Shown here one piece after another: positions 4,390 to 49,339 of a stretch of DNA of 64,000 nt. Made by a program: the position numbers and the translations under genes. Numbering within the stretch: the first letter of the stretch is position 1; each line of letters starts with the position of its first letter. Source of the stretch: Escherichia coli. Its GTDB lineage: Bacteria > Pseudomonadota > Gammaproteobacteria > Enterobacterales > Enterobacteriaceae. Location: NCBI RefSeq assembly GCF_003790525.1, contig NZ_CP033635.1; one strand, given 5' to 3'. A model generated the notes under the pieces. It did not search any database. It had not been told where the DNA came from and was given only the letters and a program-made list of their open reading frames with translations.

Positions 4390-5733
4390 ATGTTAAACAG
4401 TATTTTAGTCATACTCTGTTTGATCGCTGTAAGTGCGTTCTTCTCGATGTCCGAGATCTCGCTTGCCGCCTCACGCAAAATCAAACTTAAACTGCTGGCT
4501 GATGAAGGCAATATAAATGCCCAACGCGTTCTGAATATGCAGGAAAATCCCGGCATGTTCTTTACCGTGGTCCAAATCGGTCTGAACGCAGTGGCGATTC
4601 TCGGCGGTATCGTCGGTGATGCGGCATTTTCTCCAGCTTTTCACAGCCTGTTCTCCCGCTATATGTCGGCAGAACTCTCTGAGCAACTGAGCTTTATTCT
4701 CTCTTTCTCGTTAGTGACTGGCATGTTTATCCTGTTTGCGGATTTAACCCCGAAACGCATCGGTATGATTGCGCCAGAAGCTGTGGCTTTGCGTATCATC
4801 AACCCGATGCGCTTCTGCCTGTACGTTTGCACCCCGCTGGTGTGGTTCTTCAACGGACTGGCGAACATAATCTTCCGTATTTTCAAACTGCCAATGGTAC
4901 GTAAAGATGACATCACTTCTGATGACATCTACGCGGTAGTGGAAGCCGGTGCGCTGGCAGGCGTGTTACGTAAACAGGAACACGAGCTGATTGAAAACGT
5001 CTTTGAGCTGGAATCCCGTACCGTTCCGTCTTCAATGACACCGCGTGAAAACGTGATTTGGTTTGATCTCCACGAAGATGAGCAAAGTCTGAAGAATAAG
5101 GTGGCGGAACATCCGCACTCTAAGTTTCTCGTCTGTAATGAAGATATTGACCACATCATCGGATATGTCGATTCTAAAGACCTGCTGAACCGCGTGCTGG
5201 CTAACCAAAGCCTGGCACTGAACAGCGGCGTACAAATTCGCAACACGCTGATTGTGCCGGATACGTTAACCCTTTCAGAAGCGTTGGAAAGTTTTAAAAC
5301 CGCAGGTGAAGACTTCGCGGTGATCATGAACGAGTACGCGCTGGTAGTGGGGATCATCACCCTCAACGACGTGATGACCACGCTGATGGGCGATCTGGTC
5401 GGTCAGGGGCTGGAAGAGCAGATTGTCGCCCGTGATGAGAACTCATGGCTGATTGACGGCGGCACCCCGATTGACGACGTCATGCGCGTGCTGGATATTG
5501 ACGAGTTCCCGCAGTCGGGCAACTACGAAACCATCGGCGGCTTTATGATGTTTATGCTGCGTAAGATCCCGAAACGCACCGATTCGGTGAAATTCGCCGG
5601 CTACAAATTTGAAGTGGTGGATATCGATAACTACCGTATCGACCAACTGCTGGTGACCCGGATCGACAGCAAGGCCACCGCCCTTTCGCCAAAACTGCCT
5701 GACGCTAAAGATAAAGAAGAAAGCGTCGCGTAA
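4390..5733 (+). CDS. ytfL: UPF0053 inner-membrane protein YtfL (CNNM/TlyC-type, CBS domains)
   Basis: 447-aa ORF with N-terminal TM segments and C-terminal CBS-like region; recognised as YtfL. Confidence 0.92.
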   Translation: MLNSILVILCLIAVSAFFSMSEISLAASRKIKLKLLADEGNINAQRVLNMQENPGMFFTVVQIGLNAVAILGGIVGDAAFSPAFHSLFSRYMSAELSEQLSFILSFSLVTGMFILFADLTPKRIGMIAPEAVALRIINPMRFCLYVCTPLVWFFNGLANIIFRIFKLPMVRKDDITSDDIYAVVEAGALAGVLRKQEHELIENVFELESRTVPSSMTPRENVIWFDLHEDEQSLKNKVAEHPHSKFLVCNEDIDHIIGYVDSKDLLNRVLANQSLALNSGVQIRNTLIVPDTLTLSEALESFKTAGEDFAVIMNEYALVVGIITLNDVMTTLMGDLVGQGLEEQIVARDENSWLIDGGTPIDDVMRVLDIDEFPQSGNYETIGGFMMFMLRKIPKRTDSVKFAGYKFEVVDIDNYRIDQLLVTRIDSKATALSPKLPDAKDKEESVA

Positions 5734-5750
5734 CCCCCAGAAACATCAAC

Positions 5751-5778
5751 GGCTCCTGAATCAGGAGCCGTCTTATTA
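5751..5778 (+). terminator. Hairpin terminator downstream of ytfL (possibly bidirectional with ytfK)
   Basis: ggctcctgaatcaggagcc perfect stem-loop followed by a T-rich tract (gtcttatt). Confidence 0.55.
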
Positions 5779-10343: not shown

Positions 10344-11204
10344 ATGATCGCAATTACCGGCGCAACCGGCCAACTTGGTCACTATGTTATTGAATCCTTG
10401 ATGAAAACGGTTCCTGCCAGCCAAATAGTGGCTATCGTTCGTAATCCGGCAAAAGCCCAGGCACTGACAGCACAAGGCATTACCGTGCGTCAGGCTGATT
10501 ACGGCGATGAAGCCGCACTGACATCTGCGCTTCAGGGAGTGGAAAAACTACTGCTGATCTCTTCCAGCGAAGTGGGTCAACGTGCCCCGCAGCATCGTAA
10601 TGTTATTAATGCCGCAAAGGCGGCTGGTGTGAAATTTATCGCTTATACCAGTCTGCTTCACGCGGATAAATCTCCGCTCGGCCTCGCCGATGAGCACATT
10701 GAGACGGAGAAAATGTTGGCTGATTCTGGCATCGTTTACACCCTGCTGCGCAACGGCTGGTACAGCGAAAACTACCTCGCCAGCGCCCCGGCAGCACTGA
10801 AACACGGCGTATTTATCGGTGCGGCGGGCGATGGCAAAATCGCCTCAGCAACGCGGGCAGATTATGCGGCAGCTGCGGCACGCGTGATTAGCGAAGCAGG
10901 TCACGAAGGCAAGGTTTATGAACTGGCAGGTGATAGCGCCTGGACACTGACACAGTTAGCGGCGGAACTCACCAAACAGAGCGGCAAACAGGTTACCTAT
11001 CAAAATCTGAGTGAAGCTGATTTCGCCGCGGCACTGAAAAGCGTCGGACTGCCTGACGGACTGGCGGATATGCTGGCGGATTCTGACGTTGGCGCATCGA
11101 AAGGTGGTCTGTTTGATAACAGCAAAACGCTTAGCAAATTGATTGGCCGCCCAACGACAACGTTAGCCGAAAGCGTAAGCCATCTTTTTAATGTTAATAA
11201 CTAG
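10344..11204 (+). CDS. qorB: NAD(P)H:quinone oxidoreductase QorB (YtfG), NmrA-like
   Basis: 286-aa ORF MIAITGATGQLGHYVIESL... with Rossmann GxxGxxG. Confidence 0.92.
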   Translation: MIAITGATGQLGHYVIESLMKTVPASQIVAIVRNPAKAQALTAQGITVRQADYGDEAALTSALQGVEKLLLISSSEVGQRAPQHRNVINAAKAAGVKFIAYTSLLHADKSPLGLADEHIETEKMLADSGIVYTLLRNGWYSENYLASAPAALKHGVFIGAAGDGKIASATRADYAAAAARVISEAGHEGKVYELAGDSAWTLTQLAAELTKQSGKQVTYQNLSEADFAAALKSVGLPDGLADMLADSDVGASKGGLFDNSKTLSKLIGRPTTTLAESVSHLFNVNN

Positions 11205-11311
11205 TTAATTAAAGTGGCATCCTCCCGCATCCTCTCTGATAATGACGGGATGCCGGGAGCAATCATGTCTGCTTCCTGAACTTTCTTCTGACAGATCAAT
11301 GGATGCCAGTA

Positions 11312-12277
11312 ATGATTAGCGGCGTGCTGTACGCCCTATTAGCAGGGTTGATGTGGGGGCTTATTTTTGTCGGGCCGTTGATCGTGCCGGAATACCCGGC
11401 GATGTTGCAGTCGATGGGGCGTTATCTGGCGTTAGGGTTAATTGCGCTACCCATTGCCTGGCTGGGACGCGTGCGTCTGCGTCAGTTGGCGCGTCGCGAC
11501 TGGCTTACCGCCTTGATGCTCACTATGATGGGCAACCTCATCTATTACTTCTGCCTTGCCAGTGCCATTCAACGTACTGGCGCGCCTGTTTCCACGATGA
11601 TTATCGGCACCCTGCCGGTGGTGATTCCCGTTTTTGCCAATCTGCTTTATAGCCAGCGCGACGGCAAACTCGCGTGGGGAAAACTCGCCCCGGCACTGAT
11701 TTGTATTGGCATCGGCCTGGCGTGTGTGAATATTGCTGAGTTAAACCACGGACTCCCCGATTTTGACTGGGCACGTTATACCTCAGGCATCGTGCTAGCG
11801 TTAGTTTCCGTGGTCTGCTGGGCATGGTATGCCCTGCGCAACGCCCGCTGGCTGCGGGAAAATCCCGACAAACATCCAATGATGTGGGCGACGGCGCAGG
11901 CGCTGGTCACGCTGCCGGTTTCTCTCATCGGCTATCTCGTCGCCTGTTACTGGCTGAATATGCAAACGCCGGACTTCTCCTTACCCTTTGGCCCCCGTCC
12001 GCTGGTGTTTATTAGTCTGATGGTTGCGATAGCCGTGCTTTGCTCATGGGTTGGCGCACTCTGCTGGAACGTCGCCAGCCAGCGATTACCGACAGTGATT
12101 CTCGGGCCGCTGATTGTTTTCGAAACGCTGGCAGGTTTGCTGTACACCTTTTTACTCCGCCAGCAAATGCCGCCGCTAATGACGCTGAGCGGTATCGCGC
12201 TGTTAGTGATTGGCGTGGTCATCGCGGTCAGAGCAAAACCAGAAAAACCTTTAACTGAATCTGTCTCAGAAAGTTGA
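11312..12277 (+). CDS. ytfF: Inner-membrane protein YtfF (DMT/EamA-type transporter)
   Basis: Polytopic membrane ORF; start placed at MISGVLYALLAG (321 aa). An ATG three codons upstream (11303) is equally possible. Confidence 0.85.
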   Translation: MISGVLYALLAGLMWGLIFVGPLIVPEYPAMLQSMGRYLALGLIALPIAWLGRVRLRQLARRDWLTALMLTMMGNLIYYFCLASAIQRTGAPVSTMIIGTLPVVIPVFANLLYSQRDGKLAWGKLAPALICIGIGLACVNIAELNHGLPDFDWARYTSGIVLALVSVVCWAWYALRNARWLRENPDKHPMMWATAQALVTLPVSLIGYLVACYWLNMQTPDFSLPFGPRPLVFISLMVAIAVLCSWVGALCWNVASQRLPTVILGPLIVFETLAGLLYTFLLRQQMPPLMTLSGIALLVIGVVIAVRAKPEKPLTESVSES

Positions 12278-12335
12278 CACGCTGGCAGTGAGTTAAATAA
12301 GCCTCTGCTACGTAAGGGTTATAGCTTTTGCCTTA

Positions 12336-12358
12336 AAGATGCATTTAAAATGCATCTT
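12336..12358. promoter_or_regulatory. NsrR operator in the ytfE promoter
   Basis: AAGATGCATTT-A-AAATGCATCTT, a perfect 11-1-11 palindrome about 27 bp upstream of the ytfE ATG; matches the known NsrR box. Confidence 0.8.
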
Positions 12359-12384
12359 ATCTTATTAAGAATGAGGTATCAGCT

Positions 12385-13047
12385 ATGGCTTATCGCGACC
12401 AACCTTTAGGTGAACTGGCGCTCTCTATTCCTCGCGCTTCGGCTCTGTTTCGTAAATATGATATGGATTACTGCTGTGGCGGTAAGCAGACGCTGGCGCG
12501 CGCGGCGGCACGTAAAGAACTGGATGTTGACGTCATTGAAGCCGAACTGGCAAAGCTTGCTGAACAACCGATTGAGAAAGACTGGCGTAGCGCCCCGCTG
12601 GCGGAAATCATCGACCACATTATTGTGCGCTATCACGATCGCCATCGCGAGCAGCTGCCGGAGCTGATCCTGCAAGCGACTAAAGTCGAGCGCGTTCACG
12701 CCGACAAACCAAGTGTGCCAAAAGGGCTGACAAAATACCTGACTATGCTGCATGAAGAGCTTTCCAGCCATATGATGAAAGAAGAGCAAATTCTCTTCCC
12801 GATGATCAAACAAGGCATGGGCAGCCAGGCAATGGGGCCAATCAGCGTAATGGAAAGCGAGCACGATGAAGCGGGCGAACTGCTGGAAGTGATCAAACAC
12901 ACCACCAATAACGTCACACCGCCGCCGGAAGCCTGCACCACCTGGAAAGCGATGTATAACGGCATTAATGAACTGATTGATGACCTGATGGAGCACATCA
13001 GTCTGGAAAACAATGTACTATTCCCGCGCGCGCTGGCGGGTGAGTGA
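12385..13047 (+). CDS. ytfE: Iron-sulfur cluster repair di-iron protein YtfE (RIC)
   Basis: 220-aa [36 protein letters not shown]...; hemerythrin-like motifs. Confidence 0.94.
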
Positions 13048-13054
13048 TTTGTTC

Positions 13055-13090
13055 GATCAACGATCCTGACATGGGCAGGATCGTTGATTA
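13055..13090. terminator. Hairpin between convergent ytfE and the accessory ORF
   Basis: tcaacgatcct-gacatgggc-aggatcgttga stem-loop (11-bp arms) immediately after the ytfE stop; weak T-tract. Confidence 0.5.
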
Positions 13091-13091
13091 T

Positions 13092-14585
13092 TCAGTCATT
13101 CAGTGGAAGTAATTCATTGTTGTAACTGGTGTACTTACCTTCAACGGTAAGCAAACTGCCGTTTTTATCAAGATGCGCCGCATCGAGTTGTCGAGTCTCA
13201 TTACGCCGCTTCGCATCACGTACCAGCCCATCGCCTACGTAATAAATATAGTGGTCATCATGAGCAAAGGTATCTGATAATTGACCATTGGCGTATTTAA
13301 ACCACGTCCATTGGCCTTTCAGTTCAAAATGCTCAACCGTGTCTTCATCAATAAAATACGTATAGCGATCGTCATGTGCTAAATAATTTAATGGTGTGCC
13401 ATCGGGGCTTTTATACCACTGCCATTGCCCATTAATATCAAAAATAGTCACATCATCGCGCGCGATGAAATAAATTTTGTTCCCTACAACATTAGCACCT
13501 TTCTGTAATTCTTGTTGTGGGTCTGGTAAATGTATGACCGACAGCGTTTTTTCGACCGCAGATATATATTTCACCAGATAGAGCGAATCTTTATATTGCG
13601 CCACATTCTCCGTCAGCGGGCGAAAATATTCCGGATCAACATCAGGAATTGTCGCAACCCGGCAGTCATTAGCACGCCTGGAAGCATCACGCGTCATCCA
13701 GGTTACTTTATCCCGCTGTAGGTCAAATATACTTCGGCAGTTTTTACCGAACGCATAACGTTTCTCCCCGTCTTTATCGCGATAAATTAGCAGTGAACCG
13801 GCTATCCAGCGCACAATATGAAAGGTATCCGGATCGGCGTTGATGGCATCTCCATTCACAAAGACCTGCGATTTAGTCCGCCAGATTGTATCCCAGGGTC
13901 CCGGATTACTTTTGCTTTCGCAGCTATTAGGTGAATAAATAATGGGACGACGTGTCCAGGGTTTAATGTCAAGAATAGAATACCCTTGCGCACTACCTAA
14001 CCAGCGCCCCTGAAAGTAAAGATTGCGACGATCTTTCAGCACATCCGCGGAATCAAGTGAATTCATCCTTCCCCCCACCTGTTGCAGCGAATCCATATCG
14101 ACCTGCTTTTCGCCGTGATTATCATCCGTGCGTTCGCCATCAAAATAGAGGCTGTCTTTATCGGCAGCAAAACGCCCCCATGCGCGGAATGTTGCGGCAT
14201 CGACTTTCGGTGTTCCCGGCGGGTTCTGAACTATTTTCCCTGCCCATAAAATATGGCGGCCATCAGTCAACCAGTCGAAACGCCAACCACCGTTGGTTCT
14301 GATATAAGCGCCACCATCCACCCGCACAAAATCATTATTGATATCATCAGGAGAATCATATTCATCATCAGTGCCGTCAGATACACGGCGCAGTTGTTTG
14401 AACCTCACCTGCGGTAAATGAATATCCGGAAAATAGAGTCCGTAACCATCGCTATCTTCAACAATATATTTTGTTCCTTGCCCCCACGGTTGGTAATAAA
14501 AAGAGGCAGATGGTACGCCGGAGCAGGCTATTGAATTGAGTGAAAATAAAGCCAGTGCGAGACAAACGGGTTTAATTGGTAACAT
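13092..14585 (-). CDS. Secreted repeat protein, DKNYY-like (function unknown), longer paralog
   Basis: 497-aa ORF; N-terminal signal peptide MLPIKPVCLALALFSLNSIACSG; motifs VDAATF...FAADKDSLYFDG and ADPDTF...YRDKDGE; C-terminal W-rich tandem repeats; paralogous to the next ORF. Confidence 0.78.
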   Translation of the reverse strand: MLPIKPVCLALALFSLNSIACSGVPSASFYYQPWGQGTKYIVEDSDGYGLYFPDIHLPQVRFKQLRRVSDGTDDEYDSPDDINNDFVRVDGGAYIRTNGGWRFDWLTDGRHILWAGKIVQNPPGTPKVDAATFRAWGRFAADKDSLYFDGERTDDNHGEKQVDMDSLQQVGGRMNSLDSADVLKDRRNLYFQGRWLGSAQGYSILDIKPWTRRPIIYSPNSCESKSNPGPWDTIWRTKSQVFVNGDAINADPDTFHIVRWIAGSLLIYRDKDGEKRYAFGKNCRSIFDLQRDKVTWMTRDASRRANDCRVATIPDVDPEYFRPLTENVAQYKDSLYLVKYISAVEKTLSVIHLPDPQQELQKGANVVGNKIYFIARDDVTIFDINGQWQWYKSPDGTPLNYLAHDDRYTYFIDEDTVEHFELKGQWTWFKYANGQLSDTFAHDDHYIYYVGDGLVRDAKRRNETRQLDAAHLDKNGSLLTVEGKYTSYNNELLPLND

Positions 14586-14617
14586 AGCGTCATCCTGATG
14601 CTGTTAGCGTGAATAGG

Positions 14618-15775
14618 TTATTTAAATAAGGGTTTAAGCCCGCTCGGGGGTTGCTTCACCGATAACCAACCTCCCTTGCCTAAGTTATAACGCAGCCATT
14701 CACCTTGTTGGGCGTGTTCTTTCCCAATTCCAGTCGCTTGTTGAGTGTAAAGCTGCCCGTCTGTTGATATAAACGTGTTAGTTAATCCCCAACTACCCCC
14801 TGCTTCAAGTGAGTCGGAGAGATCCTCTGGCTTGAGATTAACCAACTCACCTTCGCCCAGGGCGTTAATTGTGACTTTATATATTTGGTTCTTATATAAA
14901 CCGGTATTCCGAACAAACAGATAAAAATATTCCGGATCAACTCCCGCCAGCGTTTCATAAATACACTCACTGCCCGCTGGAGTGGCTTCATATTTGAGCC
15001 AGGACACGTTATTCAGACCAATATTAAAAGGTGCACAGCGATAGCTGGTATCCTCCAGCTCATAGTCACGCTCGCCGCTTTTATCGCGATAAACTAAGCG
15101 TTCGCCAGGCATCCAACGTTTAATCTGAAAAGTTTTGCGATCGGCGGGCAGTGGCTTGCCATTAACAATCACCTGCGAATTTGTCTGCACAACAAATTGC
15201 AGGGAGGAATCATGCCGCAGGATTTGAAATCCGTCAGCGCTTCCCAACCAGTGCCCCTTATGCCAAAGACTATTTTTATCACGCAGTAAATTCCAGATGT
15301 CCGTCTCTTCAAGCGTTGACATATCCACCTGCTTATCACCGCTATTATCATCGGTACGCTGACCATCAAAATAGATACTGCGTTTATCAGCAGCGAAAGC
15401 GCCGAATGCCTGAAAACTGGCAGCGTCGACTATAGGTTTACCGGGGGGATTTTTCAGGACTTTGCCAGACCAAAGAACAGAGCGTCCATCGGTGAGCCAG
15501 GCATGTTCGCAATCCCCCTCATCATCGCAATCGAACTTATCGGGATTAAAATCGGACAGTAACCGGGAATCTTGTTTATTGGCTAAATTGGCAATACGCC
15601 AAAGGCGGGAAAAATTAATATCTGGTAATTCGGAGAGGATCTCATCTTTTTCCCCCTTCTGTTCGACAACATAAACCGTGCCTTTCTCCTGCTGGCGGTA
15701 ATAAAAATCCGCGCCCCAGGAAGGTGAAATAGAGGGAGGTAATGCGGCGATTAATAACCAACTGCGCTTAACCAT
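14618..15775 (-). CDS. Secreted repeat protein, DKNYY-like (function unknown), shorter paralog
   Basis: Start placed at MVKRSWLLIAALPPSISPSWGA (signal peptide, 385 aa). The track ORF extends to 16003 but would overlap the cycA 3' end, so that extension is rejected. Confidence 0.72.
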   Translation of the reverse strand: MVKRSWLLIAALPPSISPSWGADFYYRQQEKGTVYVVEQKGEKDEILSELPDINFSRLWRIANLANKQDSRLLSDFNPDKFDCDDEGDCEHAWLTDGRSVLWSGKVLKNPPGKPIVDAASFQAFGAFAADKRSIYFDGQRTDDNSGDKQVDMSTLEETDIWNLLRDKNSLWHKGHWLGSADGFQILRHDSSLQFVVQTNSQVIVNGKPLPADRKTFQIKRWMPGERLVYRDKSGERDYELEDTSYRCAPFNIGLNNVSWLKYEATPAGSECIYETLAGVDPEYFYLFVRNTGLYKNQIYKVTINALGEGELVNLKPEDLSDSLEAGGSWGLTNTFISTDGQLYTQQATGIGKEHAQQGEWLRYNLGKGGWLSVKQPPSGLKPLFK

Positions 15776-15849
15776 AATGAACTCTGCAACGAGTGGCAAA
15801 GATCCACGGTAAGCTCGCGCCTGAGGGCTGTCTATGATGGTAGATTTTT

Positions 15850-15890
15850 TTAGGAATATATAAAGACAAAGGCACCCGCAGGTGCCTTTC
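15850..15890 (-). terminator. cycA terminator hairpin
   Basis: aaaggcacc-cgc-aggtgccttt stem-loop about 20 nt after the cycA stop, followed on the minus strand by a T-rich tract. Confidence 0.6.
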
Positions 15891-15908
15891 AGAGTTATAA
15901 ACGCGGCA

Positions 15909-17312
15909 TTACTTCGCCATGCGTTTTTTACCAATAAACAGCCAGCCCAGCCCCAGCGCGATAAACCACAGCGGGGTAACCAGCAGCGCCTGGCGGGTGT
16001 CATCTTCCAGTGTCAACAACACCAGAACAAACACAAAGAACGCCATACATACCCAGCACATCAGCTTGCCGAGTGGCATCTTGTAGATCGACTTCTCATG
16101 CAGATGAGGACGCTGTTTGCGATACACCAGGTACGAGCAAAGGATAATCGTCCAGACAAACATAAACAGAATCGCGGAAACGGTTGTAATCATCGTGAAC
16201 GCGCCAATCACGCTGGGATTCACATACAACATCACCACGCCGCCGAGCAGACAGATACAAGAGAAGGTCAGCCCTTTCGCGGGTACTGCGCGCTTAGAGA
16301 GTTTAGCGAACGCTTTCGGTGCCACACCTTCCTGGGCCAGACCAAACAGCATACGGCTGGTAGAGAAGACACCGCTGTTAGCGGAAGACGCCGCAGAGGT
16401 CAGCACCACAAAGTTGATCACGCTGGCAGCCGCAGGCAAACCTACCAACACAAACAGTTCAACGAACGGGCTTTTCTCCGGGACTACCGAACTCCACGGC
16501 GTCACGGACATAATCACAATCAGCGAGAAGACGTAGAACATAATGATACGGATCGGAATGGAGTTAATCGCGCGTGGCAGTGATTTCTCTGGATCTTTGG
16601 TTTCCGCAGCGGTGGTACCTACCAGCTCAATCCCTACGAAAGCGAAAACCGCTATCTGGAATCCAGCAAAGAAGCCACTTAAGCCTTTCGGGAACCAGCC
16701 GCCGTCATTCCACAAATGTGCAAATGATGCTTCCACACCGGTCGGTGACTGAAAGTGCATCGCCACCATGACCAGGCCGACAACAATCAGCGACACGATG
16801 GCGACGATTTTGATCATCGCAAACCAGAACTCCATCTCACCGAACATTTTTACCGTGGCGAGGTTTAGAACCAGTAACAGAATGATCACGGATAACGAAG
16901 CAACCCAGTCAGAAAGCCCAGGGAACCAGAATTGCGCATAGGCGGTAATGGCAACCACGTCTGCCATACCGGTTACAACCCAGCAGAACCAGTAAGTCCA
17001 GCCGGTGAAATATCCTGCCCACGGCCCGAGTAAATCGGAAGCGAAGTCACTAAAAGATTTGTATTCCAGATTCGAAAGCAGCAATTCCCCCATTGCCCGC
17101 ATCACGAAAAAGAGCATAAAACCGATGATCATATAAACGAAAATGATCGACGGCCCGGCAAGGCTAATCGTTTTGCCGGACCCCATAAACAACCCTGTAC
17201 CAATGGCACCGCCAATGGCAATAAGCTGAATATGTCGGTTTGTGAGATTGCGCCGTAGCGACTGTTCAGCCGGAGCCTGATCATCGGCAACGACTTTTAC
17301 CTGATCTACCAT
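15909..17312 (-). CDS. cycA: D-serine/D-alanine/glycine:H+ symporter CycA (APC family)
   Basis: 467-aa ORF MVDQVKVVADDQAPAEQSLRRNLTNRHIQLIAIGGAIGTGLF...; amino-acid permease signature. Confidence 0.94.
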   Translation of the reverse strand: MVDQVKVVADDQAPAEQSLRRNLTNRHIQLIAIGGAIGTGLFMGSGKTISLAGPSIIFVYMIIGFMLFFVMRAMGELLLSNLEYKSFSDFASDLLGPWAGYFTGWTYWFCWVVTGMADVVAITAYAQFWFPGLSDWVASLSVIILLLVLNLATVKMFGEMEFWFAMIKIVAIVSLIVVGLVMVAMHFQSPTGVEASFAHLWNDGGWFPKGLSGFFAGFQIAVFAFVGIELVGTTAAETKDPEKSLPRAINSIPIRIIMFYVFSLIVIMSVTPWSSVVPEKSPFVELFVLVGLPAAASVINFVVLTSAASSANSGVFSTSRMLFGLAQEGVAPKAFAKLSKRAVPAKGLTFSCICLLGGVVMLYVNPSVIGAFTMITTVSAILFMFVWTIILCSYLVYRKQRPHLHEKSIYKMPLGKLMCWVCMAFFVFVLVLLTLEDDTRQALLVTPLWFIALGLGWLFIGKKRMAK

Positions 17313-19088: not shown

Positions 19089-19727
19089 TTACCCACGGGC
19101 AGGGTTCACCAAAAGCCAGCTCAGGATGGTCTCTTTGATCACCCTGCGTCTGGCTTCCAAAGCCTCAGGTGAAACCATGCTAATGTGATAAACCATCCCC
19201 AGTGTGTACTGGTTTATTAAATAATATGCACCCAGTGCGGCGATATTAATGTTGATTTGTAAGGGATCAATATATTTCTTAAAGGTTTTCTGCCGCTGCC
19301 CTTCTTCTAATAATGAAGCCATTGACTGCAAATGTGCATGGTTAATTTCAGCGAGGCGTTTTGATTTTTTATAATGCACACCCTTACTTTGGTTTTCACT
19401 ATGGACAATTTTTAAAAACCACGGGTTATTGATGTAATAATCCCAAGTAAAATCAATTATTTTCTCGATCGCAATAACCGGCGAAAGCCCTGAAATGTCA
19501 AGCTCTCTCTCTTTTTCGCGAATATCGTTCCAGGTATATTCCAGTACTTCAATAAACAAATTTTCTTTATTACCAAAGTGGTGATAAACCGTCTGTTTAC
19601 TGCACCCTGCTGCCTTAACAATATTATCTACTCTGGCCCCTTCGTAACCATATTCGGCAAATTCATTAACCGCGCATAGCAGCAATTTTTCCTTCAGGTT
19701 TTGTGCGTGACTGGTATCAAGATACAT
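19089..19727 (-). CDS. TetR/AcrR-family transcriptional regulator (intact)
   Basis: Start placed at [58 protein letters not shown] (TetR HTH), with a GGGGA-type RBS upstream. Track ORF upstream Met codons lack an RBS. Divergent from the downstream operon. Confidence 0.8.
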
Positions 19728-19848
19728 TCCACTTCCCCACTTCCTCTTCGTGATGGCTATCATAACCGGATTTGATCTCAGCGACAGCAAAAAGGATAAA
19801 AGTCGTAATTTCATTGAGTTATCAAATTACCTGTGATCACTCTCGCAT

Positions 19849-19870
19849 ATCAACCAACTAGATGGTTGAT
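19849..19870. promoter_or_regulatory. Candidate TetR operator palindrome in the divergent promoter region
   Basis: ATCAACCA-ACTAGA-TGGTTGAT (8-bp perfect inverted arms) between the TetR start (19727) and the SDR start (19937). Confidence 0.4.
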
Positions 19871-19936
19871 CTTTTTACCTTCCAGTCGCAAGCTAATCAT
19901 CACTCAAGGAAACAATATTCAAAAGAGGGTCATTGT

Positions 19937-20728
19937 ATGAAATCCACTCGTCCTGTTGCTGTCATCACTGGTGCTGCACGTGGTATTGGAAAGGGTTGTG
20001 CGCTGGAACTTGCTCGTAGCGGGTTTAACCTGCTGATTAACGATCGCCCTGATGCCGACAGCGTAGAAAAACTGCATATCACACAACAAGAATGTATGGC
20101 AGAAGGCGTGGAGGTCATTTGCTTCCCTGCCGATGTTGGCGATCTCTCCCTGCATGAAGAGATGCTCGACGCGGCGCAAAACCAGTGGGGGCGTCTGGAC
20201 TGTCTGCTCAACAACGCAGGGATTTCAGTGAAAAAGCGCGGTGACCTCCTCGATCTCGAGCCAGACAGTTTCGACCAAAACATTGCCATCAATACCCGCG
20301 CGCCGTTCTTCCTCGCTCAGGCATTCAGTAAACGTCTGCTCGCACAGCCGAAACCGGAAGCGGAGCTGCCGCACCGCTCGATTATTTTTGTCAGTTCAAT
20401 CAACGCCATCATGCTGGCGATGAATCGCGGCGAATACACCATTGCCAAAACCGCCGTTTCTGCCGCTGCTCGTCTGTTTGCTGCTCGCCTTTGTAATGAA
20501 CAAATTGGCGTTTATGAAGTGCGTCCTGGTCTCATCAAAACCGATATGACTATTCCGGCAACGGCCTATTACGACGAACTGATTGCCAAAGGTCTGGTGC
20601 CGTGGGGACGTTGGGGTTATCCGGCTGATATTGCTTCCACTGTCCGCGCGATGGCGGAAGGTAAACTGATTTACACCTGTGGTCAGGCGGTCGCCATCGA
20701 CGGCGGCTTAAGTATGCCGCGCTTCTGA
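19937..20728 (+). CDS. Short-chain dehydrogenase/reductase (SDR) family oxidoreductase
   Basis: Start MKSTRPVAVITGAARGIGKG (TGxxxGxG) with AGAGGG RBS; NNAG and YxxxK (YTIAK) catalytic motifs. Confidence 0.85.
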   Translation: MKSTRPVAVITGAARGIGKGCALELARSGFNLLINDRPDADSVEKLHITQQECMAEGVEVICFPADVGDLSLHEEMLDAAQNQWGRLDCLLNNAGISVKKRGDLLDLEPDSFDQNIAINTRAPFFLAQAFSKRLLAQPKPEAELPHRSIIFVSSINAIMLAMNRGEYTIAKTAVSAAARLFAARLCNEQIGVYEVRPGLIKTDMTIPATAYYDELIAKGLVPWGRWGYPADIASTVRAMAEGKLIYTCGQAVAIDGGLSMPRF

Positions 20729-20737
20729 GGCTGAATC

Positions 20738-21580
20738 ATGAGAGATCTGTTACAACGCCCGGATTTATTCAGTATCAATACCGCGACACTGGGCTATAAA
20801 ACGCCGCTGCCCGCCATTATTGATGCCTGCGCCGCACGCGGTATTGGCGCCATTGCCCCCTGGCGCAGGGAGTTGCAGGGTGAAGATCTCCAGCAAATCG
20901 CCCGCCAGCTTGCTGCCAGTAACATAAACGTTTCCGGTTTGTGCCGTAGCACCTACTACACCGCACCGACGCTGGCGGAGCGCAAACTGGCGATTGACGA
21001 TAACCGCCGGGCGCTGGACGACGCCGCTGTACTGAACGCCGCCTGTTATATGCAGGTGGTTGGCGGTCTGCCAATGGGAACAAAAGATCTGTACGAAGCG
21101 CGGGAACAGGTGAAACAAGGGATTCGCCAGTTGCTGCCACATTCGAAAGATGTCGGTGTGCCAATTGCACTGGAGCCACTGCACCCGATGACTGCTGCCG
21201 ATCGTTCTTGTCTGTGCACGTTACGTCAGGCGCTGGACTGGTGTGATGAACTCGATCCCGATGGCGAATTTGGCCTCGGCGTGGCGGTAGATGTCTACCA
21301 TGTCTGGTGGGATCCGGATCTCGTCAGTCAGATCCTGCGTGCCGGAAAACGCATCCTCGCGTTTCATGTTTCCGACTGGTTAGTGCCGACCACCGATCTG
21401 GTCAATGACCGTGGAATGCCGGGAGATGGTGTCATCAATATTCCGTCAATTCGTCGGCTGGTTGAAAACGCCGGATTTAATGGCGCTATTGAACTGGAAA
21501 TATTCTCACCGTATTGGTGGCAGCAAGATATTGACAGCACACTGGATATTAGCGTCGATCGCATCGCGCATTATTGCTAA
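20738..21580 (+). CDS. Sugar-phosphate isomerase/epimerase-like protein (xylose-isomerase-type TIM barrel)
   Basis: 280-aa ORF; family call from overall similarity to TIM-barrel AP-endonuclease-2/xylose-isomerase-like proteins (IALEPLHP region); weaker than a motif-based call. Confidence 0.65.
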   Translation: MRDLLQRPDLFSINTATLGYKTPLPAIIDACAARGIGAIAPWRRELQGEDLQQIARQLAASNINVSGLCRSTYYTAPTLAERKLAIDDNRRALDDAAVLNAACYMQVVGGLPMGTKDLYEAREQVKQGIRQLLPHSKDVGVPIALEPLHPMTAADRSCLCTLRQALDWCDELDPDGEFGLGVAVDVYHVWWDPDLVSQILRAGKRILAFHVSDWLVPTTDLVNDRGMPGDGVINIPSIRRLVENAGFNGAIELEIFSPYWWQQDIDSTLDISVDRIAHYC

Positions 21581-21589
21581 GGAATAATC

Positions 21590-22366
21590 ATGAGTGACCA
21601 ACCCGTTCTGTTCAGCAGAGCGGCGGCTTCTTGCCGCCTGACATTGAACCGTGAAGATAAATGTCATGCTATTAATGAAGAAATGATCGAATCTCTCGAC
21701 CATTATTTAAATGAAATTGAAAACGACACCACATTACGATTAGTCGAATTAACGGCAACCGGCGATAAATTCTTTTGTGCAGGCGGCGATATTAAATCGT
21801 GGTCAGCCTATTCGCCATTAGATATGGGCAGAAAATGGATTAAACGCGGCAATGACGTTTTTAATCGCCTGCGCAATTTACCTCAATTAACGGTTGCGAA
21901 TCTCAACGGTCATACCATCGGCGGTGGTATTGAACTTGCCTTGTGCTGCGATATTCGTATTGCTCGCCCCAGCGCGAAATTCTCTAATCCGGAAGTAATG
22001 CTCGGCATGGTGCCTGGCTGGATGGGCATTGAACGCGTGCTTAATCAGGTCGGTCCGGTGGTCGGTCGCCAGATGCTGATGCTGGGTAAACGCCTGACGG
22101 CGCAGGAAGCTCAGGCGGCGAATTTAATTGATGAAGTGGTAGAAAAAGAACAGGTGGAAAGCTGGATGGCGAATCAGTTAGCGCAGCTGGAAAAATGTGG
22201 TCCGGTGGCGCTTGCACATATTAAGCAACTGATTCTGGCACTGGAAAATAAACATGCCGATTACCCGCACCAGCTACTGGCCGGATTAATGTCCGCCACT
22301 CAGGATTGCCAGCAGGCGACGCGCGCCTTTGCCGAAAAAAGTAGCGTGAGCTTCCATAATCAATAA
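21590..22366 (+). CDS. Enoyl-CoA hydratase/isomerase (crotonase) family protein
   Basis: 258-aa ORF; crotonase-fold motifs (FCAGGDIKSW, GHTIGGGIELALCCDIRIA). Confidence 0.85.
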   Translation: MSDQPVLFSRAAASCRLTLNREDKCHAINEEMIESLDHYLNEIENDTTLRLVELTATGDKFFCAGGDIKSWSAYSPLDMGRKWIKRGNDVFNRLRNLPQLTVANLNGHTIGGGIELALCCDIRIARPSAKFSNPEVMLGMVPGWMGIERVLNQVGPVVGRQMLMLGKRLTAQEAQAANLIDEVVEKEQVESWMANQLAQLEKCGPVALAHIKQLILALENKHADYPHQLLAGLMSATQDCQQATRAFAEKSSVSFHNQ

Positions 22367-22375
22367 GGAAATTGT

Positions 22376-23917
22376 ATGCGTAAGATAACAACCGCCGAGG
22401 CACTGGCGGCGCAAATTCAGGACGGTGCGACTATTGCTATTAGCGGTAACGGCGGCGGTATGGTGGAAGCCGACCATATTCTGGCTGCTATTGAAGCGCG
22501 TTTCCTGCAAACCGGACACCCGCGCGATCTGACATTAATCCACTCGCTGGGTATTGGCGATCGCGACAGCAAAGGCACTAACCGTTTTGCTCACGCCGAA
22601 ATGCTCAAACGCATTATTGCCGGACATTTTACCTGGTCGCCCAAGATGCAGGAACTGGTGAAAAGCAATGCTATTGAAGCCTACTGTTTCCCTGGTGGCG
22701 TGATTCAGGCGTTGCTACGGGAGATCGGTGCCGGACGTCCGGGGCTTTTTACCCACGTTGGGCTGGGATCGTTTGTTGATCCACGCAATGGCGGCGGTAA
22801 GTCGAATGAATGCACTACCACCGACCTGGTAGAACTGATTGAAATCGATGGTGAAACCAAACTTCGTTATCGCCCTTTCAAAGTGGATTACGCGATTTTG
22901 CGTGGCACTTATGCCGATCCTCGAGGCAACGTCAGCCTTGAAGAAGAAGCGATTGATATGGATAGCTATTCCATGGCGCTGGCAGCACACAACAGCGGCG
23001 GCAAAGTGTTCGTACAGGTACGCGATGTGCTGGAAGCTGGCGCGATTGAACCACGTCGGGTCAAATTACCGGGGATTCTGGTTGATGGCATCGTTGAGCA
23101 CCGCGAACAACCGCAAACCTATCTTGGTGGTTACGACCTGACCATTAGCGGTCAACATCGCCGTCTAAGTTCTAACGACGCTATTGAACTGGTTAGTCAT
23201 CCGGTGCGTCGCCTGATTGCCCGTCGGGCAGCACGGGAACTGGTGGCAGGCGCTTCAACCAACTTTGGCTTTGGTATTCCGGGCGGTATTCCAGGCGTAG
23301 CGCTGCGCGAAGGCGTGCCTTATCAAAGTTTGTGGCTGAGTGTAGAACAGGGTGTACATAACGGCATGATGCTGGATGATGCTCTGTTCGGCTGCGCCCG
23401 TAACGCCGATGCCATTATTCCATCACTCGATCAATTCGAATTCTACAGTGGCGGAGGGATCGATATCACCTTCCTCGGCATGGGAGAGATGGATCAGTAC
23501 GGTAACGTCAACGTCTCCCATCTCAATGGCAATCTGATTGGCCCCGGCGGATTTCTCGAAATTGCGCAAAACGCCCGTAAAGTGGTGTTCTGCGGCACGT
23601 TCGACGCCAAAGGTAGCAAGATTGATGTAACGCCAGATGGCTTGCATATCGCCCAGTCAGGTCAAATCCCTAAACTGGTTACCCAGGTGGAAAAAATCAC
23701 TTTTAGCGCCGCCTACGCACAGCAAAGTGGTCAGGAAGTGTTGTATATCACTGAACGTGCAGTATTCCAGTTAACGGCAGAAGGCGTTGAATTAATTGAA
23801 ATCGCACCAGGTGTGGAGATTGAGCGCGACATTCTGCCGTATATGGCCTTCCGTCCAATTATCAATCAGCCACGCCTGATGGAAAGTAGCCTGTTTACGC
23901 CGATGGAGGATGCATGA
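22376..23917 (+). CDS. Family-I CoA-transferase (acyl-CoA:acetate/3-ketoacid CoA-transferase, YdiF-like fused subunits)
   Basis: 513-aa ORF; C-terminal ITERAVFQLTAEGVELIEIAPGVEIERDILPYM closely resembles the YdiF C-terminus (...ITERAVFTL...LIEIAPGVD...) as I recall it. Confidence 0.8.
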   Translation: MRKITTAEALAAQIQDGATIAISGNGGGMVEADHILAAIEARFLQTGHPRDLTLIHSLGIGDRDSKGTNRFAHAEMLKRIIAGHFTWSPKMQELVKSNAIEAYCFPGGVIQALLREIGAGRPGLFTHVGLGSFVDPRNGGGKSNECTTTDLVELIEIDGETKLRYRPFKVDYAILRGTYADPRGNVSLEEEAIDMDSYSMALAAHNSGGKVFVQVRDVLEAGAIEPRRVKLPGILVDGIVEHREQPQTYLGGYDLTISGQHRRLSSNDAIELVSHPVRRLIARRAARELVAGASTNFGFGIPGGIPGVALREGVPYQSLWLSVEQGVHNGMMLDDALFGCARNADAIIPSLDQFEFYSGGGIDITFLGMGEMDQYGNVNVSHLNGNLIGPGGFLEIAQNARKVVFCGTFDAKGSKIDVTPDGLHIAQSGQIPKLVTQVEKITFSAAYAQQSGQEVLYITERAVFQLTAEGVELIEIAPGVEIERDILPYMAFRPIINQPRLMESSLFTPMEDA

Positions 23918-25995
23918 GCCAGCTTGATGACACCCTCCTTGATGCGCTCACACACGTCACTTTTCCAAAGGGTTTTGTGTCAGCAGAGCCAGCGTCAATT
24001 GTCACCGTTGAGGATGTTGATTACCCGATCTGGCAAGTTGATGCGCTGGTCGTTGGTAGCGGCGCAGCAGGATTACGTGCGGCAGTTGAACTTAAACGCC
24101 GCCAGCAAAATGTGCTGATCGCCACCGCCGGGTTATATATGGGGACATCGGCATGTTCTGGCTCTGATAAACAAACACTGTTTACCGCCGCTACCGCGGG
24201 CAACGGCGACAACTTCACCAAACTGGCAGAGGCACTGGCGAGCGGTGGGGCGATGGATCACGACACCGCTTATGTCGAAGCGGTAGGTTCTCTGCACACT
24301 CTAGGCGGGTTGCAATATCTTGGTCTGGAATTACCGGAAGATCGCTATGGCGCGATTCTTCGTTATCAAACCGACCATGACGAAGCCGGGCGTGCAACCT
24401 CGTGTGGGCCGCGTACCTCAAGGTTAATGGTGAAAGTGCTGCTGGAAGAAGTACAGCGTCTTGCTATCCCAATGTTGACCAGTGCAACAGTGATTAAACT
24501 GCTACATCAGCGTGACGAAAACGGCGAAGACCGCGTGGCGGGGGCAATCCTCGCGACCGGTCATCGCGCCCATAACCCATGGGGGCTGGCAATTGTGACT
24601 GCGCCCAATGTGGTACTGGCAACAGGAGGGCCTGGCGAGCTTTATCGCGACAGTGTGTATCCACACAAATGTTTCGGCTCACTGGGGCTGGCGCTGGAGG
24701 AAGGTCTGACGCTCACCAATCTGACCGAAAGCCAGTTTGGTATCGGCACAACGCGCAGCACCTTTCCGTGGAATTTGTCCGGGACTTATGTACAGGTGAT
24801 CCCATATATCTATTCCGTGGATGCCGGGGGTAACGAGTATAACTTCCTCGCGGATTACTATCGCACCACCCAGGAGCTGGCTTCAAACATTTTCCGTAAA
24901 GGCTATCAGTGGCCGTTCCACGCCACGCGGGTAATGGATTTTGGCTCCAGCTTGTTAGATATGGCAGTAGCGCAAGAGCAGCAATCAGGGCGTCAGGTAT
25001 TTATGGATTTCAATCGTAATCCTGAACCTGTGCCGGGTGACCTGCCGTTCTCATTAGATCGACTGGACGACGACGTTCGCGCGTATCTGGAAAATAACGA
25101 CGCTCTGGCACCATCGCCCATCGAACGACTGCAACGAATGAATCCGCTGTCTATCTCGCTGTATAAGATGCACGGTTACGATCTCACCACGCAGCCATTG
25201 CAGTTTGCCATGAATAATCAGCATATGAATGGCGGCATTGAAGTCGATATCTGGGGACAAACATCTCTGCCCGGTTGTTTTGCAGTGGGGGAAGTTGCTG
25301 GCACACACGGCGTCACCCGACCTGGCGGCGCGGCGTTGAATGCCGGGCAGGTTTTTGCTGTTCGTCTGGCACGTTTTATTGGTTGCACGCAAAAGCGGAA
25401 TATTGATGGAGATATAGCACAGCTGGCAGCTCCGGCACTGGCTTCTATAAGAGAGATCATTACTCAGGCGCACGATAACGGGACCGGGATGCCGTTGTCG
25501 GTTGTGAGAGAAAAAATTCAGGCACGAATGTCTGACCATGCGGGATTTATTTGCCATGCCGATAAAGTCCGACGTGCCACTCGTGATGCCCTGCTATTGA
25601 ACGAATTTGTGCAACGACATGGATTGGCAATCAAACATGTGGGTGAAGTTGCCGAGCTGTTTATGTGGCGGCATATGACGCTGACTTCTGCCGCCGTCTT
25701 AACTCAACTGACACATTATATTGATGCAGGTGGTGGTAGCCGGGGAGCACGTATTATTCTCGACAGGGATGGAAATTCTATTCCGCAAACACGAAATGGT
25801 TTTTGTGATGCCTGGCGCTTTCGTTCAGAGCGTACTGAGGATAAAAAAGATAAACTGCTTATTCATTATTGCAACAGTATCTTTCACGTCAGAGAAACAC
25901 CTGTCCGTGAGTTTCCCACTATCCGCGGCATTTGGTTTGAAAAAAACTGGCCTGGCTTTCTTAATGGGACAATTTACCAGCCACAGGATGAATGA
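23914..25995 (+). CDS. FAD-dependent oxidoreductase (fumarate-reductase/succinate-dehydrogenase flavoprotein-like)
   Basis: 693-aa ORF; N-terminal dinucleotide fold VDALVVGSGAAGLRAAVE; ATGA overlap with the upstream CoA-transferase stop. Confidence 0.75.
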   Translation: MSQLDDTLLDALTHVTFPKGFVSAEPASIVTVEDVDYPIWQVDALVVGSGAAGLRAAVELKRRQQNVLIATAGLYMGTSACSGSDKQTLFTAATAGNGDNFTKLAEALASGGAMDHDTAYVEAVGSLHTLGGLQYLGLELPEDRYGAILRYQTDHDEAGRATSCGPRTSRLMVKVLLEEVQRLAIPMLTSATVIKLLHQRDENGEDRVAGAILATGHRAHNPWGLAIVTAPNVVLATGGPGELYRDSVYPHKCFGSLGLALEEGLTLTNLTESQFGIGTTRSTFPWNLSGTYVQVIPYIYSVDAGGNEYNFLADYYRTTQELASNIFRKGYQWPFHATRVMDFGSSLLDMAVAQEQQSGRQVFMDFNRNPEPVPGDLPFSLDRLDDDVRAYLENNDALAPSPIERLQRMNPLSISLYKMHGYDLTTQPLQFAMNNQHMNGGIEVDIWGQTSLPGCFAVGEVAGTHGVTRPGGAALNAGQVFAVRLARFIGCTQKRNIDGDIAQLAAPALASIREIITQAHDNGTGMPLSVVREKIQARMSDHAGFICHADKVRRATRDALLLNEFVQRHGLAIKHVGEVAELFMWRHMTLTSAAVLTQLTHYIDAGGGSRGARIILDRDGNSIPQTRNGFCDAWRFRSERTEDKKDKLLIHYCNSIFHVRETPVREFPTIRGIWFEKNWPGFLNGTIYQPQDE

Positions 25996-26015
25996 TATTG
26001 CAAAGGTTAATCACT

Positions 26016-26492
26016 ATGCGAAATATAATTAGATCTATTAATGCTCTGCTTGCAACATTGAATATTACCATTTTGGCGATCATTGTGGCATGTGTGACAT
26101 GGCAAGTGGTAGCACGATTTATATTTAAAAGCCCCAGTATATTTACGGATGAACTCAGTCGTTTGCTTTTTATTTGCCTTGGCCTTTTTGGTGGTGCCTA
26201 TACCGCGGGGCAGAACCGGCATCTGGCGATTGATCTGCTTCCTATGATGCTGAAAGGAAAAGCCCGGCGTCATTTATTTTTGTGTATTCAGATTATCGTT
26301 ATTATCTTCTCTACCATCATTATGGTATATGGTGGTGGGCTATTAACGCTGGACACATTCGATTCAGGTCAAACCTCACCCGCTTTAGGCTGGCAGATGG
26401 GATATATCTATATGAGTATCCCGATTAGTGGTGTTCTTATTATTATATACACCATAGATATGGTTTTAACAGAACTTAAACAACCACTCTAA
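26016..26492 (+). CDS. TRAP transporter small permease (DctQ family)
   Basis: Four-TM small hydrophobic protein; start placed at MRNIIRSINALLATLNIT with AAGG RBS. An ATG at 25992 overlapping the upstream stop is an alternative. Confidence 0.78.
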   Translation: MRNIIRSINALLATLNITILAIIVACVTWQVVARFIFKSPSIFTDELSRLLFICLGLFGGAYTAGQNRHLAIDLLPMMLKGKARRHLFLCIQIIVIIFSTIIMVYGGGLLTLDTFDSGQTSPALGWQMGYIYMSIPISGVLIIIYTIDMVLTELKQPL

Positions 26493-26534
26493 AGATAATA
26501 AACAACAACCAACCATAGTAGGAATGGAGAAATT

Positions 26535-27836
26535 ATGGATTACTGGTTACCGATTATTGTGTTATTTGGTGCCTTCTTTTTTATGTTGGCATTAGGTGTA
26601 CCTATTGTTTATGCCATTGGTTTATCCACACTGGCATCAATTTCCACACAACTCGATTTCAACTCAGCATTGAGTGTGGTTTCCCAAAAGTTAGCCTCCG
26701 GGTTAGATAGCTTTACATTATTGGCAATTCCATTTTTTATTTTGTCTGGCAACATTATGAATCATGGAGGAATAGCGCGACGATTAATCAACTTTGCCAG
26801 AATTCTTGGCGGTCGACTGCCTGGCTCACTTGCTCACTGTAATATTCTTGCCAATATGCTGTTCGGGGCAATTTCTGGTTCAGCTGTTGCTTCGGCGGCT
26901 GCGATGGGCGGCGTCATGCATCCGCAACAGGTTAAAGAGGGCTACGACCCGGCATTCAGTACTGCGGTTAACGTTGCCTCTGCCCCGACGGGTTTGCTTA
27001 TTCCACCAAGTAATACGTTAATCGTCTATTCACTGGTCAGTGGTGGTACTTCTATTGCCGCACTGTTCCTGGCGGGTTATGTTCCGGGAATTTTGCTGGG
27101 TCTGGCACTGATGGTAATAGCCGGTATTATCGCGGTACGTCGCGGTTATCCAAAGCCAGAACGCCCGACTTTACGCCAGGCTGGCGTTGCGATATGGATG
27201 GCTATCCCCAGTATTTTCCTGATTATTTTAATTATGGGGGGTGTATTAAGTGGTATTTTTACCCCGACAGAGGCCTCCGCAATTGCAGTAATTTATACCC
27301 TTTTCCTTGCACTGGTTCTTTATCGTGAAATCTCAGTTAAAGATTTACCTAAAATATTTCTGGAATCCGTTATTACCACTGCAATTGTCTTGTTATTAAT
27401 TGGTTCTTCGATGGGAATGTCATGGGCGATGTCAAACGCTGACGTTCCCTTCCTGATTCTCGATTTGCTTAACACTATTTCTGACAACCCAATAATAATC
27501 CTGCTTATTATCAATATTATCCTGTTGATTATCGGCACTTTTATGGATATGACACCGGCGGTACTGATTTTTACGCCGATATTTTTACCGGTTGTCACCG
27601 AACTGGGCATGGACCCGATTCACTTTGGTATTGTCATGGTACTGAACATGTGTATCGGTATTTGTACTCCGCCTGTAGGCAGTGTGTTATTTGTCGGTTG
27701 TAGTGTATCTAAATTACCGATTAATAAAATTATCAAACCTATGCTGCCATTTTATGCCGTGATGGTATTGGTGCTGGCAATGGTGACCTATATTCCGCAA
27801 ATCAGTATGGCATTGCCAAGAGCACTGGGTTACTGA
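26535..27836 (+). CDS. TRAP transporter large permease (DctM family)
   Basis: 433-aa polytopic membrane protein MDYWLPIIVLFGAFFFMLALGVPIVYAIGL... typical of DctM. Confidence 0.88.
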   Translation: MDYWLPIIVLFGAFFFMLALGVPIVYAIGLSTLASISTQLDFNSALSVVSQKLASGLDSFTLLAIPFFILSGNIMNHGGIARRLINFARILGGRLPGSLAHCNILANMLFGAISGSAVASAAAMGGVMHPQQVKEGYDPAFSTAVNVASAPTGLLIPPSNTLIVYSLVSGGTSIAALFLAGYVPGILLGLALMVIAGIIAVRRGYPKPERPTLRQAGVAIWMAIPSIFLIILIMGGVLSGIFTPTEASAIAVIYTLFLALVLYREISVKDLPKIFLESVITTAIVLLLIGSSMGMSWAMSNADVPFLILDLLNTISDNPIIILLIINIILLIIGTFMDMTPAVLIFTPIFLPVVTELGMDPIHFGIVMVLNMCIGICTPPVGSVLFVGCSVSKLPINKIIKPMLPFYAVMVLVLAMVTYIPQISMALPRALGY

Positions 27837-27888
27837 TGCGCATTCACTGGCGGCACCTGCCGCCATATTTATTAGAAAAGGAACATCT

Positions 27889-28860: not shown

Positions 28861-28924
28861 TTATCTTCGTAGGGCTGCTTATTGTGGCCCTTATCGATAT
28901 CTGCAAGTGCTCGCTACAAAAGCA

Positions 28925-28951
28925 AAACGCCGACCAATGGTCGGCGTTTTT
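28925..28951. terminator. Bidirectional rho-independent terminator (accessory operon / rplI)
   Basis: aaacgccgacc-aatg-gtcggcgttttt: GC stem flanked by an A-tract on one side and a T-tract on the other, between convergent dctP-like gene and rplI. Confidence 0.7.
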
Positions 28952-48913: not shown

Positions 48914-49339
48914 TCACTCCACCAGCAATAATTTATAAAGCGGTTGATTCTCTTCAACCAAATCGGCAAGCGTGTAGTTATCCAGTTCCGTAAGAAAACT
49001 TTGCACGGCCTTAGAAAGTGCCTGTTTCAACCGACAGGCAGGTGTAATGTGGCAAAACTCACTGCTGCAATTCACCAGCGATAAGGGCTCCAGCTCGCGC
49101 ACCACATCACCAATACGTATCGCACTCGCCGGTTTACCCAGACGAATGCCGCCATTTTTTCCACGAACAGCAGTCACGTAGCCGGCACGACTAAGTTGAT
49201 TGATTATTTTGACCATATGATTACGGGAGACGCCGTAGACGTCAGTCACTTCAGAAATACTGGTCATCCGCCCTTCTGGCAATGACGCCATGTAGATCAG
49301 CGCACGTAATCCGTAATCAGTGAAACTCGTTAACTGCAC
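48914..49339 (-). CDS. nsrR: Nitric-oxide-sensing repressor NsrR (Rrf2 family)
   Basis: 141-aa [52 protein letters not shown]...; three Cys ligands. Confidence 0.94.

Follow-up and report, generated by a model that had tools for sequence, protein, structure and literature searches.

A perfect 11-1-11 palindrome upstream of ytfE in Escherichia coli as a probable NsrR operator, and its natural alleles

Introduction

The NsrR operator at ytfE in Escherichia coli K-12 is reportedly treated in the work of Bodenmiller and Spiro from 2006 and of Partridge and colleagues from 2009, and we know of no structure of E. coli NsrR on ytfE operator DNA. NsrR acts in trans on many promoters. For its sites, Rodionov and colleagues (2005, PMC1274295) predicted the consensus gATGyAT-N5-ATrCATc, which they located ahead of ytfE (dnrN), hmp, and hcp. 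The same authors cite a confirmation by Spiro that the repeat mediates NsrR repression of ytfE (PMC1274295). In the established model, repression by holo-NsrR is lifted when NO nitrosylates its Fe-S cluster (PMC5320621, PMC9052748). The ytfE promoter region serves as an NsrR-controlled NO reporter in EHEC (PMC7336997). YtfE itself has recently been recast as more than an Fe-S repair protein, namely as a nitrite reductase producing NO (PMC9052748).

A close known counterpart of the locus described here is the ytfE site of the E. coli strain CFT073, which is the identical 23-mer, AAGATGCATTTAAAATGCATCTT, and is occupied in NsrR ChIP-seq (Mehta et al. 2015, PMC5320621, Table 4). It has the best PatSer score among the 11-1-11 sites of that genome, its ChIP-seq summit lies 50 bp before the start codon, and its half-sites are given at distances of 33 and 45 bp from that codon (PMC5320621, Table 2); under nitrate-derived NO, ytfE is up 69.6-fold in CFT073 (PMC5320621). 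As a structural model for reading such sites there is the complex of Streptomyces coelicolor NsrR with its hmpA1 operator (PDB 7B0C, as cited in PMC10783083), which likewise joins an Rrf2-family dimer to a 23-bp pseudo-palindromic operator, although both the organism and the operator sequence are different.

Results and discussion

The palindrome and its identity as an NsrR site

In the 64,000-nucleotide stretch of E. coli DNA that was analysed (the window), qorB (10344..11204), ytfF (11303..12277), and ytfE (12385..13047) follow one another, all on the plus strand. Between ytfF and ytfE, the intergenic region (12278..12384, +) contains the promoter of ytfE along with the operator and a Shine-Dalgarno sequence, GAGG (12373..12376). 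An initial annotation of the window had described a perfect 11-1-11 palindrome at 12336..12358, just upstream of ytfE, and the sequence read-out bears out both the symmetry and the place. The half-sites, AAGATGCATTT at 12336..12346 and AAATGCATCTT at 12348..12358, are 100% complementary and stand on either side of a 1-nt spacer, A, in the context ...gccttaAAGATGCATTTAAAATGCATCTTatcttattaagaatgaggtatcagctATG..., with a gap of 26 bp between the palindrome and the ATG of ytfE at 12385.

Here, we propose, with a probability of about 95%, that this palindrome is the NsrR operator repressing ytfE, with NsrR supplied in trans from 48914..49339. An NsrR site at ytfE is already on record, exact sequence included. 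The 23-mer fits the published consensus gATGyAT-N5-ATrCATc, and the claim that it matches the experimentally defined NsrR motif holds letter for letter, the ChIP-seq-positive ytfE site of CFT073 having the same sequence and the same distance to the ytfE start codon (PMC5320621). The half-site centres in the window, ~32 and ~44 bp upstream of the ATG, are in line with the positions in Table 2 of the CFT073 study. The site itself is the same in the two strains, and the genes that flank it in the window (with a 2.9 kb insertion after ytfE) match SMS-3-5-like strains.

Scanning the window with an NsrR position weight matrix (PWM), a check that the initial annotation had proposed, singles out the same site. 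The matrix was symmetrised, drew on the 26 distinct sites of 11-1-11 type in CFT073 Table 4, and was built both with and without the ytfE site; the operator scores 31.68 bits with that site in the matrix and 30.96 of a possible 31.10 bits with it left out, which at ~31 bits amounts to the matrix maximum. Elsewhere in the 64 kb the best score is 13.4 bits, the runner-up positions being 60822, 45420, and 17434, at 13.4, 12.2, and 12.0 bits (overall range 11.8-13.4 bits). These three were rejected as NsrR sites, as their scores are at or below those of the weakest published (training) sites and none has a promoter-associated ChIP peak in the corresponding region of CFT073, where no further promoter-associated NsrR ChIP-seq peak is given (PMC5320621). 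On the strength of this gap in scores and of the CFT073 ChIP-seq listing, the window has one credible NsrR operator. Other E. coli NsrR sites are more degenerate, at 12-26 bits against 31 at ytfE in the window. A query of AAGATGCATTTNAAATGCATCTT with up to 3 mismatches gave a single match in the 64 kb, namely 12336..12358, and 0 matches in 100 dinucleotide-preserving shuffles.

Perfect inverted repeats with arms of at least 11 nt number four in the window, the operator included, so it is the sequence and position of the operator that are significant and not its symmetry alone. The other three, with arms of 11-13 nt, are GC-richer, lie 3' of genes, and look like terminators: one follows the gene at 4390..5733 (5749..5771), one has 13-nt arms and follows the ytfE stop codon as a terminator-like hairpin of -24 kcal/mol (13056..13088), and one follows a TRAP substrate-binding gene (28924..28950).

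Might the ytfE palindrome similarly be an intrinsic terminator, or a hairpin stabilising the 3' end, of the co-oriented ytfF? It comes 58 bp after the ytfF stop codon (12275..12277), a terminator scan flags it (10 pairs, a 3-nt loop, and 5 T in an 8-base tail), and the allele in the window folds at -10.7 kcal/mol (z = -4.6). Against this, the stem is AT-rich, with G-C pairs at 3/10 positions, where an intrinsic terminator would have a stable G+C-rich stem, and the tail, AUCUUAUUAA, has no U run in place of the expected U-tract. Terminator-like hairpins at other places in the window are far stronger, as with the one after ytfE. The majority allele of E. coli (~4244 genomes) has a C-A mismatch in the stem and reaches only -4.0 kcal/mol, hence the hairpin is not what is conserved; and in other genera the palindrome lies 26 bp before ytfE without ytfF upstream. 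We consider a terminator role very unlikely.

Conservation within and beyond E. coli

The window is chromosomal E. coli DNA: the 251 bp around the site were matched in 5414-5415 of the 5426 complete genomes of the species. As a side observation, the 5418 matches to the ytfF-ytfE region include three in plasmid-labelled records, which may be mis-assigned replicons or chromosomal fragments carried on large plasmids.

For other species, an exact-pattern scan with AAGATGYATTTNAAATRCATCTT was run over one genome per species, taking the first ORF on each side of every match. It found the NsrR consensus in at least 120 species, at no fewer than 120 loci, from genera that include members of the Enterobacterales, Acinetobacter, Legionella, Methylobacter, Vibrio, and members of the Francisellaceae and Bacillaceae. 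Among the matches listed, 111 loci were classified, as ytfE (42), flavohaemoglobin-type (42; Globin + FAD_binding_6 + NAD_binding_1, or globin only), truncated globin (22), or tehB (5), and an nsrR homologue adjoins the site in 31 of the at least 120 loci listed. This co-occurrence across species is independent comparative support for the motif belonging to NsrR and the NO-response genes.

The same co-occurrence bears on whether the palindrome is the site of another regulator (FNR, Fur, IscR, or another Rrf2 protein) and merely NsrR-like. In its favour, the hmp promoters have an FNR site that overlaps their NsrR site. A review has ytfE de-repressed in fnr and fur mutants, but according to the same review the ytfE promoter has no recognisable site for either protein, and the effects are thought to be indirect (PMC9268430). 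By eye, the FNR/CRP-family pattern TTGAT-N4-ATCAA does not fit the 23-mer, while the identical sequence is occupied by NsrR in the ChIP-seq of CFT073 (PMC5320621), and the motif's place beside nsrR homologues in those 31 other-species loci also speaks for NsrR. We find it highly improbable that the site belongs to a different regulator, and continue to read it as an NsrR operator, a reading that nothing seen in the analysis speaks against.

Among the matches listed, the 42 ytfE loci have their start codon mostly 26 bp after the palindrome, as in the window, and the palindrome and this spacing are kept across 42 Enterobacterales species despite diverged flanks. Short palindromes do occur, and otherwise nothing favours the notion that this one is a functionless AT-rich repeat that arose by chance. 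The shuffles (0 of 100 with a match, even with 3 mismatches), the presence of the region in 5414-5415 of 5426 E. coli genomes, and the palindrome with its fixed spacing amid diverged flanks in 42 species all stand against it; to judge from the alignments, conservation refutes a chance origin, for which we see a vanishingly small likelihood.

Within the operator, the central base (12347), nominally left free by NsrR, is A in gene orientation at 42/42 ytfE loci among the matches listed. By contrast, it varies at other NsrR targets, with counts at the loci listed of A15/T24/C2/G1 for flavohaemoglobin and A5/T5/C9/G3 for truncated globin. Just outside the 23-mer, positions ±1 and ±2 are nearly all A/T among the loci listed: the ytfE and TehB loci have no G/C there, and the few exceptions at other loci include 3 C and 1 G at +1 of the truncated-globin loci. 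In effect, the operator may have a 13-1-13 form. In having the 11-1-11 consensus and A/T-only flanks at ±1 and ±2, the ytfE site resembles both the hmp, hcp, ygbA, and yeaR operators of E. coli and the hmp/globin operators of Acinetobacter, Legionella, Methylobacter, and Bacillaceae, each of them placed 10-30 bp ahead of the start codon in an NO-response gene's upstream region.

Operator alleles in E. coli

Comparison with the K-12 ytfE promoter, likewise suggested at the outset, places the K-12 operator at the orthologous position with one base different. The 141 bp aligned between K-12 (DH1) and the window are identical save for 12352 (+), which is position 17 of the operator, giving 22/23 identical bases within the operator and 118 outside it. 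This base is G in the window and A in K-12 and most E. coli; the right arm of K-12 is AAATACATCTT, leaving its repeat with one mismatch where that of the window is perfect. The variable base coincides with the degenerate y/r position of the published consensus (PMC1274295).

Alleles were counted with 45-nt queries that had the variable base at their centre; with these, the 28-base exact word of megablast excludes the other allele. The G allele is found in ~1036 complete E. coli genomes and the A (K-12) allele in ~4244, such that the perfect-palindrome form makes up ~19%, or about one fifth, of complete E. coli genomes. Strains with the G allele include UPEC 536, FDAARGOS_497, SMS-3-5, and the likewise uropathogenic CFT073. 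The perfect form is thus a frequent natural minority allele and no peculiarity of this strain. Roughly half of the Enterobacterales species sampled have it too: at the 42 ytfE loci listed, the perfect C/G form is found in 19 species and the C/A form of K-12 in 18, so the form in the window is neither derived nor unusual.

The two alleles differ in PWM score, with K-12 lying 0.7-0.8 bit below the window, and in the predicted RNA hairpin (-10.7 kcal/mol in the window, z = -4.6, as against -4.0 in the K-12/majority allele). The G allele probably acts just as that of K-12 does. It is possible, though unlikely, that G/A at 12352 is a functional cis-regulatory polymorphism, giving tighter NsrR repression, or a shifted induction threshold, of ytfE in G strains. 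Were this so, the hairpin, more stable by 6.7 kcal/mol, might alter read-through from ytfF or the ytfE leader; and as YtfE may make NO that inactivates NsrR, a small change in the operator could move the set-point of the whole NsrR regulon.

Two further variants were seen. The operator of E2348/69 has the left arm AAGGTGCATTT, and that of DETEC-S565 reads AAGATGTATTT-A-AAATACATCTT, a second perfect palindrome in which a left-arm C>T change pairs with the right-arm A.

The operator and the ytfE promoter

What might the operator overlap in the ytfE promoter? Its repeat is said, in the abstract of Bodenmiller and Spiro from 2006, to overlap the -10 element of the ytfE, hmpA, and ygbA promoters. 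In the window, a simple sigma-70 scan of 12150..12500 gave no canonical promoter, so the case for promoter overlap draws on weaker hexamer candidates together with conservation. Our own -35/-10 PWM gave several weak, mutually exclusive promoter candidates, and in combination with an alignment of 43 Enterobacterales ytfE upstream regions it left three -10 hexamers as candidates, all of them paired with a weak -35.

The first candidate, TAAAAT (12346..12351, +), lies inside the operator and takes in the invariant central A. The second, TATCTT (12358..12363, +), runs from the last operator base; it is TATATT in most other genera, is conserved beyond the operator, and is the commonest of the top-3 promoter predictions across species. 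The third, AAAGAT (12335..12340, +; TAAGAT in some genera), overlaps the left arm and would place the start at the central A of the operator. All three (starting at 12335, 12346, and 12358) overlap or abut the operator, and each conserved promoter candidate would set the operator between about -34 and +12, within the footprint of RNA polymerase; none of them would bury the palindrome deep in the transcribed leader, the case named at the outset as speaking against an operator. We infer from them that the operator lies within the ytfE promoter, as well as its exact geometry relative to the -10 element and the start site.

The top PWM hit, TTGACA at 12274 with AATAAG, was rejected as the ytfE promoter: its -10 is poor, it is unconserved beyond Escherichia, and it overlaps the stop codon of ytfF.

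At ytfE, the conservation of the bases 3' of the operator exceeds what operator preferences would account for by themselves. The invariant central A suggests a promoter constraint (a -10 position or the start nucleotide) superimposed on the operator at ytfE. Together, the A found at 42/42 ytfE loci listed and the extra downstream conservation suggest that at this gene the operator also serves as part of the core promoter.

The alignment of the 43 upstream regions also brought out a conserved block, TAAGGGTTATAGC (consensus AAAGGGTTATAGC), at 12313..12325 (+). It lies 9-10 bp upstream of the operator and is kept in ~40 Enterobacterales species whose surrounding sequence has diverged. It matches neither a canonical -35 nor a canonical -10. 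Reading it as a NarL heptamer or as a TAAGG/CCTTA inverted repeat was tried and dropped, the fit being inconsistent across the aligned species.

In light of this arrangement, a holo-NsrR dimer, bearing its Fe-S cluster, would bind the two AAGATGCATTT half-sites. As these lie on, or directly beside, the putative core ytfE promoter, bound NsrR would stop RNA polymerase from initiating. NO would then nitrosylate the cluster, NsrR would leave the DNA, and ytfE would be transcribed. In vivo occupancy and NO induction of ytfE come from the literature on other strains, and would apply to this one by analogy.

Regulator and target

The product of ytfE, a di-iron RIC protein and here the regulated gene, scores 417.7 bits against the NCBIfam equivalog NF008221 (cut-off 254) and is identical to MG1655 YtfE at 218/220 residues. 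The gene nsrR encodes the trans-acting, [Fe-S], NO-sensing repressor of the Rrf2 family (141 aa, GTG start); it scores 292.8 bits against NF008240 (cut-off 182) and lies between purA and rnr. Its coordinates, 48914..49339, are those of the initial annotation, which left its strand unstated; the gene is on the minus strand, opposite to ytfE. NsrR in the window is identical to that of MG1655 at 141/141 residues, including C91, C96, and C102, which we take to be the cluster ligands. The 222 bp upstream of nsrR differ from MG1655 by one base, with the GTG start conserved.

That regulator and target are about 36 kb apart in the window had been noted beforehand, and the distance stands (36.6 kb from operator to nsrR). 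That nsrR and ytfE share one window is ordinary synteny with no functional linkage. The distance in MG1655 is ~25.4 kb (nsrR at 4406190..4406615 and the ytfE operator at about 4432021), and the difference is accounted for by two accessory insertions in the window (2.9 kb and ~9.7 kb).

The earlier statement that the regulatory circuitry is intact holds at the level of sequence, for the operator, for ytfE, and for NsrR (141/141). The strain has the standard NsrR-ytfE nitrosative-stress switch, with operator, target, and repressor all intact, and the value of this finding is at the level of annotation. What is mildly new are the allele frequencies, the invariant central A at ytfE, and the conserved block at 12313..12325.

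Accessory insertions

The 2.9 kb insertion lies between ytfE and cycA (13092..16003) and is absent from K-12 and FDAARGOS_497. SMS-3-5 and other strains have it at 100% identity, and at least 80% of it is covered in 269 of the 5426 genomes. On its minus strand are two hypothetical genes, 13092..14585 (497 aa) and 14618..15775 (385 aa as annotated); their products are paralogues, sharing 36% identity over 343 aa (E = 1e-62). Neither protein matches an NCBIfam or Pfam family above cut-off, the one match being to DKNYY and sub-threshold. The 497-aa protein has a lipoprotein-like N-terminal signal (...LNSIAC).

The second insertion is an accessory island at about 19089..28860 (~9.7 kb), absent from K-12 at that position and present in part in FDAARGOS_497. 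By the SMS-3-5 annotation, its genes encode a TetR/AcrR regulator, a 3-ketoacyl-ACP reductase, a sugar-phosphate isomerase, an enoyl-CoA hydratase, a CoA transferase, an FAD oxidoreductase, and a three-gene TRAP transporter, and the island looks like a putative catabolic cassette for some organic acid.
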